The translations under genes were made by a program, and so were the position numbers. Below, in pieces: positions 4,461 to 17,303 of a stretch of DNA of 31,723 nt (its first letter is position 1; each line of letters opens with the position of its first letter). The notes under the pieces are model-generated. The model had not been told where the DNA came from. It was given only the letters and a program-made list of their open reading frames with translations, and did not search any database. The DNA comes from a virus (Duplodnaviria > Caudoviricetes): IMG/VR virus record IMGVR_UViG_3300033076_001041, positions 1-31,723 of that record; one strand, written 5' to 3'.

Positions 4461-5570
4461 TTATTTAGTTGAAATACTTTCGTTAAGTTTCTTTTTTGTT
4501 TGGTTAATGTATGTGTCGGACACAAAATCCCAATTAACTACTTTCCAAAAATTATGAATGTATTTATCCCTTTCATTTTTGTATTTTAAATAATATGCGT
4601 GCTCCCACAAATCTAAACCAAGTAACGGGTAACCCCCGTTTTTTTCAGTATCCATTAACGGATTGTCTTGATTAGATGTGGTTATTATTTTTAAAGTATT
4701 TTTCTTAGTCAGAACCAACCAAACCCATCCAGAACCAAATCTTGTTTTAGCCTCTTCTTCAAACTTTTCTTTAAATTTATCAAAGGAACCAAACGATTTA
4801 CTTATTTTTGAAAGTAACGGGTCTTTTAATTTTTGTGGTTTTGGGGATAACATCTTCCAAAAAAGTGCGTGGTTAAACGCCCCACCACCATTATTTTTTA
4901 CCTTAGTGTTATATTTTGATATTTTTTTAATTATATTCTCTAAGTCTAAGTCAGGGCCTTTAAACTTTTCAATCTCGACATTTAACTTCTCAACGTACCC
5001 TTTATAGTGTTTAGTATAGTGGGTCTTCATTGTTTCTTTATCAATAAACGTTTCTAATGAATCAAACTCGTAAGGTAGTTTTTCTATACTAATTTTTTTA
5101 ATCTCATTTATTAGATTTTCCTTAATAATAGAATTTTCATTTAGTTGTCCCTCTATCTCATTTATTTTTTTTTGAAAATTTTTATAGATTATACCCTCTA
5201 AATCTTTATTCTTTTTTTCAAATTTTTTAACGTCTTTTCCTGCAATAGAATTGGCATCGTTTTCGTTTCTACTCCCGATATCAGATTCTTTGTCTCTTTT
5301 TAAAACTGTTCTTTGGTGTTCGTGAGCCCATTCGTGGGATAAGGTTCTTAATATATCACGATTTAATCTATCTTTAATTAATATTTTTAATTTGTCTGTG
5401 TTTGTTCTAGAACCCGTGGTCATAGTTCCTAATCTTGTGTTAGTAAACACAATATCAACATCCTTTTTAAGTGGGTGTGTTTTTTTTAAAAAATTAATAT
5501 ATTGTTTTATTAATTTTTCTTGTTCGACTGATGGTGTGTATCCACCTCTATAAATGATATTTACCTTCAT
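4461..5570 (-). CDS. sodA: Fe/Mn superoxide dismutase (Mn-type signature) with an N-terminal HEXXH zincin-like domain
   Basis: LPYEFDSLE, THYTKHY..Y, NNGGGAFNH, FGSGWVWL, NQDNP and DLWEHAYY supply all four metal ligands; GGG and NQD are Mn-type signatures. The N-terminal ~130 aa carry LRTLSHEWAHEHQ...ENDAN. Confidence 0.93.
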   Translation of the reverse strand: MKVNIIYRGGYTPSVEQEKLIKQYINFLKKTHPLKKDVDIVFTNTRLGTMTTGSRTNTDKLKILIKDRLNRDILRTLSHEWAHEHQRTVLKRDKESDIGSRNENDANSIAGKDVKKFEKKNKDLEGIIYKNFQKKINEIEGQLNENSIIKENLINEIKKISIEKLPYEFDSLETFIDKETMKTHYTKHYKGYVEKLNVEIEKFKGPDLDLENIIKKISKYNTKVKNNGGGAFNHALFWKMLSPKPQKLKDPLLSKISKSFGSFDKFKEKFEEEAKTRFGSGWVWLVLTKKNTLKIITTSNQDNPLMDTEKNGGYPLLGLDLWEHAYYLKYKNERDKYIHNFWKVVNWDFVSDTYINQTKKKLNESISTK

Positions 5571-12699: not shown

Positions 12700-12706
12700 T
12701 ATTTAT
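12700..12706 (+). promoter_or_regulatory. TATTTAT motif upstream of the 45-aa ORF and HAD gene
   Basis: Directly after the hairpin, 13 nt before the ATG at 12720. Confidence 0.6.
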
Positions 12707-13830: not shown

Positions 13831-14319
13831 ATGGCTGATTTATTAATGAAAATGCCCTTTCAGTACGAACCTAAAAAGAAAAATAGGTTTATTCTGTCTT
13901 TCCCTTCAGCTTTAGGGATTAACTCTTGGTACGTTGAGTCAACTTCAAGACCGAGTGTAGATGTTAAAGAAGTTGAGATTCCATTCTTAAACACTTCTAC
14001 TTACGTTGCTGGTCGTTTTACTTGGGGTACTATTGACGTTACTTTCCGTGACCCAATCGGTCCTTCAGCATCTCAAGCATTAATGGAGTGGGTACGTTTA
14101 TGTGCTGAATCTGTTACAGGTCGTATGGGTTATGCTGCTGGATACAAAAAAGATGTGGACTTAGAAATGTTAGACCCAACAGGAGTTGCTGTTGAAAAGT
14201 GGATACTACAAGGTGTGTTTTTAACTAAGGTTGATTTTGATTCATTATCTTATAGTGAAGATGGCCTTGTAACGGTTAAAGCAACAATGAGACCTGATAG
14301 ATGTATTTTGGTATACTAA
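13831..14319 (+). CDS. Tail tube protein (T4 gp19-like)
   Basis: 162 aa; EPKKKNRF, RPSV....VEIPFLN...YVAGR..W..I.VT.RD, EW, LDPTG...EKW.L.G.F; follows the sheath. Confidence 0.92.
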   Translation: MADLLMKMPFQYEPKKKNRFILSFPSALGINSWYVESTSRPSVDVKEVEIPFLNTSTYVAGRFTWGTIDVTFRDPIGPSASQALMEWVRLCAESVTGRMGYAAGYKKDVDLEMLDPTGVAVEKWILQGVFLTKVDFDSLSYSEDGLVTVKATMRPDRCILVY

Positions 14320-14343: not shown

Positions 14344-14369
14344 AACCCTACTATTAAGTGGGGTTTTTT
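14344..14369 (+). terminator. Intrinsic terminator after the tail tube gene
   Basis: Stem AACCCTACT/AGTGGGGTT (one G-U pair), 4-nt loop, T-run. Confidence 0.8.
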
Positions 14370-14370
14370 G

Positions 14371-14398
14371 TTTACTATAGACAAAAACAATTTATTTT
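14371..14398 (+). promoter_or_regulatory. Sigma70-like promoter of the chaperone gene (TTTACT-N16-TATTTT)
   Basis: Immediately after the terminator; this intergenic region has no TATTTAT; same spacing as the helicase and SSB sites. Confidence 0.45.
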
Positions 14399-14415: not shown

Positions 14416-15174
14416 ATGGATCAATCTACAGTTTATGGACAAATGGATTTTAATTTACCACACGATGTGGTTTCCTTACCTTCTAAGGGAAAATTCTATT
14501 TACCAAAAAAAGAAAGTTTAAAAGTCGGGTTTTTAACCGCATCAGATGAAAATATTTTAATGTCCCAAAATAACTCCAAAGAAGGGATTATTTATACATT
14601 ACTTAAAAATAAAATATACGAGCCAGGATTTAGTATTGACCAACTATTAGATGTCGATATTCAGGCAATATTAATCTTTTTAAGAAATACTGCATTTGGT
14701 AACGAATTTAATTATAAACTAAAAGACCCAAAAACGGGTAATGATTTTGAAGTCACTATTGTAATTGATGAGTTAAAATATATTGAACCTTTTCACGAAC
14801 CTGATGCTGAGGGGTTGTTTGAATTACAATTACCTAAGTCAAGTAAAAAAATCAAAGTTAAACTATTGAGTTTAGGTGAAACAAGAGAGATTGATAAAAT
14901 CATAGAAAAGTACCCAAAAGGTATGGTAGCACCAACAATTACTAAAAAGTTAGAATACCAAATTGTAGAAATTGATGGTAATCGAAGTAAAGAGGGTATT
15001 GCTACGTTTGTGAAAAGTATGCCTATTTCTGATTCTAAACTTATTAGAAAATTTGTTTCTGAATGTGAACCAGGTATTGACCTTAAACAAGAAGTAGTGG
15101 CCCCGTCCGGAGAAAAAGTAACGTTTGACGTGACTTTTGGGGTCGACTTTTTTCGTCCTTTCTTCTCAATATAA
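14416..15174 (+). CDS. Tail/baseplate-hub assembly chaperone (T4 gp26/gp51-like)
   Basis: VSLPSKGKFY, LTASDENIL, D..AILIFLR..AFG, a duplicated LPKS half, C-terminal GVDFFRP; lies between the tube and tape-measure genes. Confidence 0.75.
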   Translation: MDQSTVYGQMDFNLPHDVVSLPSKGKFYLPKKESLKVGFLTASDENILMSQNNSKEGIIYTLLKNKIYEPGFSIDQLLDVDIQAILIFLRNTAFGNEFNYKLKDPKTGNDFEVTIVIDELKYIEPFHEPDAEGLFELQLPKSSKKIKVKLLSLGETREIDKIIEKYPKGMVAPTITKKLEYQIVEIDGNRSKEGIATFVKSMPISDSKLIRKFVSECEPGIDLKQEVVAPSGEKVTFDVTFGVDFFRPFFSI

Positions 15175-15307
15175 GCAGATATTATTGGATGAGTTTTTTT
15201 ATTTAACAAAACTTGGTGGTTTTAATTATCGAGACTTACTAATAATGCCAACTTTTGAACGTAAGTACTTTATGAAAAAACTTGTTGACTATCACGAAAA
15301 AAAATAA
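15149..15307 (+). CDS. +1-frame C-terminal extension of the chaperone (probable frameshift product, GT-like; not in ORF track)
   Basis: Frame open from 15134 to TAA 15305-15307: FFVLSSQYKQILLDEFFYLTKLGGFNYRDLLIMPTFERKYFMKKLVDYHEKK. The MP.FER.Y motif resembles short gp51-like/GT chaperone tails; first ATG is only 20 codons before the stop. Confidence 0.7.
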   Translation, partial: FFVLSSQYKQILLDEFFYLTKLGGFNYRDLLIMPTFERKYFMKKLVDYHEKK

Positions 15308-15314
15308 ACCATTC

Positions 15315-15326
15315 TATTTATAAATA
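15315..15326 (+). promoter_or_regulatory. TATTTAT motif (within the palindrome TATTTATAAATA) upstream of the tape-measure gene
   Basis: Read directly; the 7-mer ends 14 nt before the ATG at 15336. Confidence 0.6.
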
Positions 15327-15335
15327 AAAGAAAAT

Positions 15336-17303
15336 ATGCTTTGGTTATTTTTTCAAAATGAGGCTGAAACAACAGGTAAGGAATCTGAGGCAGCAAAAAC
15401 CACAAGAGGGACAGGTGCTATTAAACAATTAGAGGAATTAAAAACCGCTTTTAAGGATTTTGTTGCTGGTACGGACGTAAGTACAATTTTCGCTAACATT
15501 AACTCCCAACTAACCACAATGGAGGATTCCGCAATGGCCCTACAAAGGTCTATGGGTGGAGTTGTTGTTGGTGCCGAAGATTTTAGAGAAAGACTAACAG
15601 ATGCGTTTAAAGAGACACAATCAATAGGTGGGTCATTTCAAGATGCTGCGGATGCTGTAGGTGGAATTGCCACTGAAATGGGGAGAGTTGTTAATCCAAG
15701 TAAGGAAGTCACAACATTAATGATTGAGTTTTCTAAGGCAACCGGAGTTTCTTCAAAAGAAACGGGGCAAATGGTTGCACAATTTGCAACATTTGGTGGA
15801 ACACAAAAAGAGGCGATTACTGACATATCATTACTTGGTGCTGAAGCAAGAAAATCAGGTTTGGCTGCAAAATCATTCACACAAGAAGTTGCAAAAAATT
15901 TAAAACAAGCAAGTTTATATGGGTTTGAAAAAGGAGTTGAAGGTATACAAAAAATTGTAAAACAAACACAACTTCTTAGAACAAGTATGGAGAAGTTACA
16001 AATTAAAGAAATTGGTACTTCTTTATTGGATCCTGAAAAGGCGTTAGAAGCGGCATCAAGTATGCAAATGTTAGGTGGTTCTGTCGGAGCATTGGCTGAC
16101 CCATTTCAGTTACTATATATGGGTCAAAAAGATATGGCCAAACTAACTGATGAAATTTTAAATATGTCAAAGGCTACTTTTACCTTTGATAAAGAAACGG
16201 GAACGTTTGGTCAAACTACCGAAGATATGTATCTTTTACGAGCACAAGTTGAAGCGTTAGGTGGTAATTATGAAGAAACCGCAAATGCTGGTAAAGAATT
16301 GGCTAAACAAGATTTTATTAAAGGTAAAATTGGTAAAGGGTTTAGTGAAGATGAACAAAATTTAATCGCAGGACTTTCTCAAATTGGTAAAGGTGGTGAA
16401 GTAACGATAGATTTTCCCGGATTTTCAAAAGGGGTTGTTAGTTTACAAGAAGCAATGGCTGACCCGACATTCGCAGAAGAATTAAAAAAATACCAAGAAA
16501 AGGCTGCAATGAGTGATAAAGAACTGGCTGAGGAACAATTATCGGTTGCTGAAAAACAGGCAATAGATATTAACCAAATTAAAAATGCTGTAATTTTAGG
16601 AATGGACTCAACAAAAAGAAACGAACTTTTGTCCGCAATAAAAAAATCAGATAACGCCTCTTTTGAATTATTTAAAACAACAACAGAAACTTTGGCGCCA
16701 GTAACAAGAGAGGGAAATCTTACCGCACAAAACGCAGTTGCTGACAGTTTAGAACTAGTTAAAAAAACACTACCAACAGCGGGTGAACTGAAGGGGATGA
16801 TGGACACATATATAAACAATACTAAAAATAATTCCGGCGGAGAAGAAGAAGGTGGTGGTGGTGGTGGTGACAACCAAGAAGTTGATATTGAAGGAACCGA
16901 TCCATTTGGTGGTGGTGGAGACAACCAAGAAGTAATTTTTGATGCACAGTTTAAAGGTGGTAAAAACACTATGATAAGTGCCGAAGGTAAATTGTACCAA
17001 CCACTACCTAATGACCAAATAGCCGTAGGGACAAGATTGTTGGACACCTTAAATCAAGGTCAAGTAGGGTTAGATTTAATTGCCGCCTTATCTAATGTTA
17101 AACAAAGTAGTTCCACTCAATCAACAAACGTGAGTGGCAAAGTAGAATTTGGTGAAATAAGAGTAAAAATAGACGCACCTTCAGGCGTTGACATCGCAAT
17201 GTTAGAAAAATCATTAAACAGTAAACAATTTACCGATAAAATAATGGGAATAGTTGCAAATCAGAAATCATACTATCAAAATCAAGCAACACTTGAAGGT
17301 TAA
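15336..17303 (+). CDS. Tape measure protein
   Basis: 655 aa, Ala/Gly/Gln/Met-rich helical character; follows the tube and chaperone; DPEKALE.A..MQMLGG...LADPF.L.Y segment. Confidence 0.75.
   Translation: MLWLFFQNEAETTGKESEAAKTTRGTGAIKQLEELKTAFKDFVAGTDVSTIFANINSQLTTMEDSAMALQRSMGGVVVGAEDFRERLTDAFKETQSIGGSFQDAADAVGGIATEMGRVVNPSKEVTTLMIEFSKATGVSSKETGQMVAQFATFGGTQKEAITDISLLGAEARKSGLAAKSFTQEVAKNLKQASLYGFEKGVEGIQKIVKQTQLLRTSMEKLQIKEIGTSLLDPEKALEAASSMQMLGGSVGALADPFQLLYMGQKDMAKLTDEILNMSKATFTFDKETGTFGQTTEDMYLLRAQVEALGGNYEETANAGKELAKQDFIKGKIGKGFSEDEQNLIAGLSQIGKGGEVTIDFPGFSKGVVSLQEAMADPTFAEELKKYQEKAAMSDKELAEEQLSVAEKQAIDINQIKNAVILGMDSTKRNELLSAIKKSDNASFELFKTTTETLAPVTREGNLTAQNAVADSLELVKKTLPTAGELKGMMDTYINNTKNNSGGEEEGGGGGGDNQEVDIEGTDPFGGGGDNQEVIFDAQFKGGKNTMISAEGKLYQPLPNDQIAVGTRLLDTLNQGQVGLDLIAALSNVKQSSSTQSTNVSGKVEFGEIRVKIDAPSGVDIAMLEKSLNSKQFTDKIMGIVANQKSYYQNQATLEG
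16857..16933 (+). repeat. 26-nt direct repeat (GGGGDNQEV x2) in the tape-measure acidic/Gly linker
   Basis: 16857-16882 and 16908-16933, 25/26 identical, 51-nt period. Confidence 0.9.

Follow-up and report, generated by a model that had tools for sequence, protein, structure and literature searches.

A candidate +1 frameshift on UUU_UUU_C, with a conserved upstream hairpin, in a gp26-family tail assembly chaperone gene

Frameshifting in tail assembly chaperone genes

Phage lambda makes a short and an extended tail assembly chaperone (TAC) from one gene between those for the tail tube and the tape measure; the ratio of gpG to the extended gpGT is about 30:1 (PMC5009743). The lambda shift is -1. 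Across phages, G/GT shifts of -1, -2, or +1 are described, that of HSTV-2 being very likely +1 (PMC5009743). The subject here is a TAC gene in the sequence of a large uncultured tailed phage, IMG/VR record IMGVR_UViG_3300033076_001041, whose whole length of 31,723 nucleotides (nt) was analysed and is called the window. Comparison with homologues makes it highly probable that a +1 ribosomal slip on UUU_UUU_C produces a 296-amino-acid (aa) form beside the 252-aa form. As in lambda, short and extended products would come from one gene in the same position. Unlike lambda, the second frame is +1; the site is not an X_XXY_YYZ heptamer, and the T needed to complete one is avoided; a hairpin lies 5' of the site; and the short product (TAC-N, the counterpart of G) has about 250 aa and belongs to the gp26 family.

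Phage T4 has two separate genes for this purpose, 26 and 51. The TAC genes of the T4-like group are reportedly the subject of a 2022 study by Vladimirov, Gautam and Davidson. The poly-T frameshift signals of these T4-like genes are described as -1 in PMC12846349, which cites that study. The window gene resembles them in family (PF12322) and in a predicted poly-T slip at the end of TAC-N; some relatives of the window, though not the window itself, also have a weak phrog_634 match in the C-domain. The probable direction differs, their signals being -1 and that of the window very likely +1. A first-pass annotation of the window, made from its letters alone, had proposed to tie gp26/gp51-like proteins to the G/GT mechanism; judging from the title of the 2022 study and its use in PMC12846349, that tie is not new.

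Two further systems offer a similar site. For the HF1-group haloviruses, a +1 shift at TTT-CGN in the tail-chaperone gene has been proposed (PMC7230728). These viruses and HSTV-2 share with the window a +1 frame between tube and tape measure and a proposed shift at TTT-CGN; their host is archaeal, and the available passage of PMC7230728 mentions neither a stimulator nor an experiment to tell +1 from -2. Influenza PA-X provides a tested UUU_CGU +1 site, UCC_UUU_CGU (PMC3498833). The window has UUU_CGU too, and UUU-to-UUC re-pairing may occur there, but PA-X is read by a eukaryotic ribosome. The UCC that precedes its shift codon is not present at the window site, where the codon before is UUU (GAR or GAC for the first Phe); that 5' codon is UUU throughout the window's clade, and distant relatives mostly have UGG for CGN.

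A literature search, covering few subscription papers, found nothing on a +1 slip or a 5' hairpin in gp26-family genes, and the available portions of PMC12859696, PMC10885494, PMC12484599, and PMC11526630 contain nothing on shift direction. The core of the frameshift is already known. The points that most invite testing are the evidence on direction, the covarying 5' hairpin, and the switch between +1 and -1 within one family.

The slip site

The elements of the locus are as follows.

14416..15174, plus strand: TAC-N (G), gp26-family tail assembly chaperone, 252 aa, assigned from PF12322, phrog_150, and a structure model
15098..15145, plus strand: conserved 5' hairpin, a predicted +1 stimulator, from rare fixed codons, fold, covariation, and a tree test
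15148..15154, plus strand: shift site TTT TTT C, containing in-frame UUU_Y twice
15155..15307, plus strand: TAC-C (T domain), a +1-frame stretch of 50 codons without a start of its own, from periodicity and family matches in relatives
15160..15165, plus strand: near-invariant TTC TTC, coding Ser-Ser in the +1 frame and complementary to GGAGAA in the hairpin bulge

The end of the gene reads as first annotated: GAC (15145-47), TTT (15148-50), TTT (15151-53), CGT (15154-56), and the stop TAA (15172-74).

Relatives were collected in scans that each kept the best 80 matches. Close set 1 began as 90 IMG/VR loci; after removal of L010 (incomplete) and 17 duplicates, 73 distinct loci remained, the window included. 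Close set 2 came from a metagenome scan and one genome contig (81 rows, 25 repeats dropped, 56 distinct). The distant set comprised 101 loci, found with queries cut before the junction, and two named records; five incomplete loci and 18 duplicates were excluded, giving 80 distinct, complete loci. The fragment L286 was left out of the analysis. Ten further named phage records were compared for frame and site. The pattern used in the close-locus scans included FFRPFF, which partly selected amino acids and did not select codons, so codon choice is the sole unbiased test of conservation.

TTT TTT CGN is found in 73/73 loci of close set 1 and in all 56 junctions of set 2, or 129 close junctions in all. 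In gene bodies TTT makes up 84% of Phe codons, CGN about 14% of Arg codons, and AGA 79%. In a protein search made without the FFRPFF pattern, [DE]FFRPFF ends 119 of the best 120 matches. Alignment of the homologues confirmed that TTT TTT C and the +1 relative frame are conserved at the codon level. The UUU_CGN site of the first-pass annotation is thus invariant in the close clade, but the family-wide signal is in-frame UUU_Y rather than UUU_CGN. The third codon of the site is TGG in 73 of the 78 distant +1 loci, and the likeness to PA-X is therefore clade-specific. The conserved unit is UUU_Y; CGN belongs to the clade.

Either Phe codon of TTT TTT C yields the identical +1 product. Downstream, TTC TTC is accounted for by its Ser-Ser coding in the +1 frame, and the fixed CCT TTC TTC is explained in part by Leu-Ser-Ser coding there; the +1 frame would therefore be read from the U run onward.

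The second frame and its direction

The extent of the +1 frame was annotated correctly: it opens after TGA (15131-33) and is open over 15134-15307, closing with TAA (15305-07). The conceptual products are likewise as claimed: 252 aa; 296 aa (+1); and 297 aa (-2). There is no ATG near the start, and the only ATG, GTG, or TTG codons are TTG 15137, TTG 15185, ATG 15245, and ATG 15272. Among the close loci no independent TAC-C start is conserved.

The +1 open reading frame (ORF) has 46-62 codons in 71 of the 73 close loci, the other two (33 and 38 codons) running off their contigs; in the -1 frame a stop follows after a median of 10 codons. Entropy by codon position is 0.93/0.66/1.36 in the +1 ORF, and the TAC-N body gives 0.92/0.70/1.35. 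The third codon position of the +1 ORF is thus its most variable, which indicates that the ORF is coding. Conserved TAC-C residues are L2, S3, Y25, P32, and R36. Among 49 aligned TAC-C copies, 14 match DUF6760 (best E 1.2e-5) and four match phrog_634 weakly (best E 0.0022); the window's own copy matches neither. Together with a modest fold match and synteny in cultured phages, the conservation of site and frame supports the annotated G/GT-type chaperone pair.

The direction, which had been left as +1 or -2, now leans strongly to +1 through the homologues. TAC-C lies in +1 in 78 of the 80 distant loci (77 by a script rule; L193 by eye), and all 78 have in-frame UUU_Y. Thirteen of them, spanning about three lineages, could not re-pair tRNA-Phe at -2: ten read TTC TTT T, two GCT TTT T, and one TTT CTA. 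Five of the ten named records are also +1 (immuto, HSE3, GXN1, SP-15, and LIS04), and the first three exclude -2. Three natural single-ORF proteins of 285-324 aa (P0243, P0384, and P0395) join TAC-N and TAC-C. An ungapped +1 junction profile built from 135 loci hits their true junctions, with scores of 34.6, 23.2, and 17.9, respectively; the -2 junction profile lands elsewhere on them (-0.5, 14.6, and -1.9). Having no DNA context, these fusions could be assembly artefacts, yet their junctions no longer read FF. A DNA locus scan for fused P0395 found none. The three are possibly gp51-like second genes.

A lambda-type heptamer with its second ORF at -1 was also sought. The ORF is +1, and a T stands 5' of the site in 0/66 eligible loci: the base before TTT TTT is T in 0/60 +1 loci of one group (31.5 expected) and 0/6 of another (4.0 expected). 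With UUU_Y kept in 78/78 loci, -2 barred in 13, and three fusions in the +1 register, comparative sequence evidence makes +1 very likely.

Some observations pull the other way. Taken by itself, the U6-C of the close clade suits a +1 and a -2 shift equally well, and the direction depends on homologues. Pairwise comparison of the window product with the fused proteins is nearly tied, +1 being ahead by 1-3 points. Related loci do not count as independent, and both close sets may draw on the same populations. In-frame UUU_Y is also frequent (84 instances among 344 TTT codons, counted over 11 genes of the window), and so is not sufficient alone.

The upstream hairpin

A hairpin absent from the first-pass annotation, and reaching beyond the segment marked there, lies immediately 5' of the site. 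Its parts are:

15098-15105 with 15138-15145, plus strand: outer stem, from fold and covariation
15115-15119 with 15133-15137, plus strand: inner stem, reaching 15120/15132 in relatives, from fold and covariation
15106-15114, plus strand: 5' bulge of 9 nt, from fold

Between the stem and the U run lie 2-4 nt. Ahead of the site, at distances of 16 to 13 codons and of 3 codons, the close loci have fixed rare codons: GCC (66/66 Ala), CCG (68/73), GGA (73/73), and GGG (73/73). These codons form the stem. The window hairpin folds at -16.3 kcal/mol. Among 8646 column pairs, the top covarying pair is 15117/15135, in the inner stem. The hairpin's covariation score is 0.236, against 0.051-0.122 in slid controls, and its pairing also exceeds all slid controls. 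On a 124-sequence tree, three pairs have 11, 10, and 11 compensatory changes, compared with 0-5 in 34 control pairs. The covariation was replicated in the second close set. Mean Z against synonymous controls is -2.44, whereas three other stretches of the gene give -0.16 to +0.15.

Here too there is contrary evidence. The stability of the window hairpin is ordinary relative to dinucleotide shuffles (z -0.92), and RNAalifold retained only the outer 6 pairs, none changed on both sides. Nor is the hairpin family-wide: distant +1 loci have mean Z of -0.93 to -1.21; the regions upstream in immuto, HSE3, and LIS04 have Z of +0.27 to +0.54; and the -1 members XacN1 and LR756511 reach about -1.9 to -2.0. 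Rfam contained no match for the hairpin. Within the close clade the hairpin is well supported by comparative evidence, and a stimulatory function is suggested.

What might such a hairpin do? In yeast, a hairpin that refolds next to the E site works against -1 shifts and in favour of +1 shifts (PMC3639245). With E. coli 70S ribosomes, a hairpin designed to lie upstream reached about 60% of the +1 activity driven by a Shine-Dalgarno (SD) sequence, an effect shown only at a stop-codon site without RF2 (PMC6321510). The window stem resembles these and the SARS-CoV attenuator in that its end would adjoin the E site (PMC3639245, PMC6321510), and it is conserved, as expected of an upstream +1 stimulator. 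It differs from the designed constructs, which act at a stop codon, in being a natural, covarying, bulged hairpin at a sense-codon site. If the shift is a +1 ribosomal slip, the balance tips slightly towards the hairpin being its stimulator, because upstream hairpins promote +1 slips in the designed 70S constructs.

This suggests a mechanism. UUU_Y is prone to +1 slips in bacteria (PMC5009743), and a small share of ribosomes would slip +1 on UUU_UUU_C to make the 296-aa long form. Peptidyl-tRNA-Phe in the P site may re-pair from UUU to UUC while the A site waits; alternatively, it may re-pair from UUU to UUU at the first Phe codon, with the same product. The hairpin, unwound in decoding, would re-form beside the E site behind the ribosome, favouring forward movement and blocking backward movement. 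On the lambda gpG/gpGT model, the 252-aa form would coat the tape measure, and the 296-aa form would connect the tape measure to the tube subunit.

Two other stimulators were considered. An internal SD just 5' of the site was not adopted: GAG is enriched there (35/67 against 16%), but GAA and GAC are common, and the stem explains the nearby GGGG. A conserved 3' stimulator was rejected (window folds z 0.00 and -0.69).

The bulge at 15106-15114 (TCN GGA GA) is fixed at the codon level: GGA occurs in 73/73 loci and the Ser codon is never AGY. It has no covarying partner; a protein-binding site or tertiary contact is possible. A helix between its GGAGAA (15109-15114) and TTC TTC is 98.6% paired with zero two-sided changes. 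This pseudoknot candidate is complementary without covariation, and the ribosome would cover one arm.

Other explanations

Transcriptional slippage would give an identical protein: a nascent hairpin at the hybrid edge would cause RNA polymerase to drop one U at T6. From the stem to the last base of U6 is 8-10 nt, about one hybrid length, and at the T5C5 site of the Roseiflexus IS630 element one base is deleted with a comparable 5' stem-loop (PMC5009743). But context-free polymerase slippage needs about 9 T, and no terminator-like site was called at the slip site. T runs in homologous +1 loci shrink to 3-5 while UUU_Y always stays in frame, a feature that matters to the ribosome and not to the polymerase; polymerase slippage is therefore considered unlikely.

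A -2 ribosomal frameshift on U6, giving 297 aa, would have a precedent in the same gene type, Mu gpGT (PMC3498833). U6 permits perfect -2 re-pairing of tRNA-Phe, as do 64 of the 77 script-called distant +1-frame loci. Against this stand the 13 distant loci and three cultured phages in which such re-pairing is impossible, the register of the fused proteins, and the opposition of upstream hairpins to backward slips (PMC3639245, PMC6321510). These make -2 very improbable.

Independent translation of TAC-C, as a small gene starting at TTG 15137 or TTG 15185 or by re-initiation, draws on the 15137 position, where 57/73 close loci have a +1-frame TTG a little 5' of the site. This observation counts against a slip; some in-frame upstream start exists in 66/73, and L105 and L109 show that TAC-C can stand as a separate gene. 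TTG 15137, though, is a by-product of TTT GGG and lies in the stem of the hairpin; in 16/73 loci it is missing or blocked; seven close and 37/78 distant loci have no upstream start whatever. At the 15185 position TTA is found in 29/73 and TTG in 6, and a start there loses the conserved L-S-S-x-Y stretch. A separate gene also leaves the invariant TTT TTT CG unexplained, and this reading too is held to be highly improbable.

Finally, an assembly error or broken gene, in which one homopolymer indel splits a single ORF, is very unlikely, to the point of being negligible: although the split falls at a homopolymer and fused forms occur in the protein collection, the framing is the same in 129 close loci (73 and 56) and 78 distant ones, all of them distinct, and in another five named phage records.

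A +1 ribosomal slip is thus the preferred reading of the close clade, and other members of the family have arrived at other arrangements.

Variants within the family

Five named records (L196, L199, L200, L201, and L203), the jumbo phages XacN1, LR756511, BF17, PA5oct, and Xoo-sp13, are -1, each with T_TTT_TTY; the frame of PA5oct was assigned by eye and that of the other four by profile match. The folds predicted 3' of the site range from -10 to -22 kcal/mol in these -1 members, against -5 to -13 in seven +1 members. L105 and L109, the two distant loci outside the +1 group, no longer have an in-frame UUU_Y; their TAC-C begins after the TAC-N stop with an ATG and a new amino-terminal segment. 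Further gp26 relatives, including P0272 and P0279 and mostly of 350-500 aa, end without the FF-x-P motif; they may show another way to the long form.

Products, neighbouring genes, and host

The 252-aa product matches PF12322 (33.1 bits; cut-off 24.5) and phrog_150 (E 7.5e-14). Its structure model has a pLDDT of 83, and BFVD matches of the model are baseplate hub and gp26 proteins. The best three of 48,161 solved chains are 3KLU (Z 6.0, root mean square deviation 3.1, 82 aligned residues), 2OB9 (Z 5.8, 3.2, 80), and 3FGX (Z 5.8, 4.0, 89), the next chain having Z 4.2; all are below Z 8, and the matches are modest. 2OB9 is the HK97 tail assembly chaperone, and at Z 5.8 it may add fold to the likeness with lambda gpG/gpGT; 3KLU and 3FGX are TACs as well. 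Foldseek against the PDB returned no match at E <= 0.001, and 2OB9 scored E 0.71 with probability 0.54. The model suggests a chaperone-like fold for the short product.

The window is a 31.7-kb linear virus record with a CheckV completeness of about 10%; the contigs that carry relatives of the locus reach about 300 kb. Sheath and tube genes lie 5' of the 252-codon gene and a 655-aa ORF lies 3'. The flanking features are:

13831..14319, plus strand: tail tube gene, the upstream landmark (phrog_4542, E 1.4e-27; PF06841, E 2.8e-4, short of its cut-off)
15315..15322, plus strand: TATTTATA motif, putative late promoter of the next gene, from recurrence of the motif before structural genes
15336..17303, plus strand: probable tape measure gene, 655 aa, from position only

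The 655-aa gene has no match in PHROG or Pfam. The same slot is annotated as tape measure in the cultured phages immuto, HSE3, and LIS04, and the chaperone pair thus sits between tail tube and tape measure slots, as in G/GT systems.

A terminator-like hairpin at 14344-14375, between the tube and chaperone genes, would reduce expression of the chaperone and the genes 3' of it; the SP-15 annotation has one in the matching slot. TATTTAT, a putative late promoter with 15 matches across the window, stands just 5' of other structural genes (7394, 9398, 13793, and 17320) and in gaps at 12700 and 30231. A motif similar to that at 15315..15322 is present in L001, L006, and L008. Elsewhere, the minus-strand ORF 4461-5570 has a carboxyl-terminal part that resembles, by eye, Fe/Mn superoxide dismutase, and a long additional amino-terminal region.

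The host is possibly a member of the Bacteroidota, a placement rated marginally better than even. Three observations hint at it: A/T-rich leaders without an obvious SD at 12 listed window gene starts; a locus match in a Flavobacteriaceae metagenome-assembled genome; and the homologue in immuto. (One further match, a fragment, is in a Polynucleobacter metagenome-assembled genome.) Bacteroidota ribosomes ignore SD sequences (PMC10798248). If the host does belong there, the hairpin would be a natural substitute for a prfB-type internal SD, because ribosomes there ignore such signals.

Implications

Current annotations list a "baseplate hub" and cut the small ORF short or omit it, a fused chaperone being the likely product at such loci. 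Direct protein tests could use cultured members: Flavobacterium phage immuto and Bacillus phages SP-15 and HSE3.

Few stimulators are defined for bacterial +1 slips at sense codons. This locus would provide an evolutionarily tuned cassette with natural compensatory variants and, if the reading is true, a natural case of a hairpin effect that the papers cited here show in designed constructs only. Moreover, one homologous site carries -1, +1, fused, and split arrangements in different members of the family, which makes the rule that sets direction testable. A broader proposal, tentative and given somewhat less than an even chance, is that one gp26 family switches its U run between +1 and -1 through a single 5' base plus 5' versus 3' structure, and that a large-phage clade uses a selected, refolding 5' hairpin for a sense-codon +1 slip, replacing the internal SD in SD-blind hosts.
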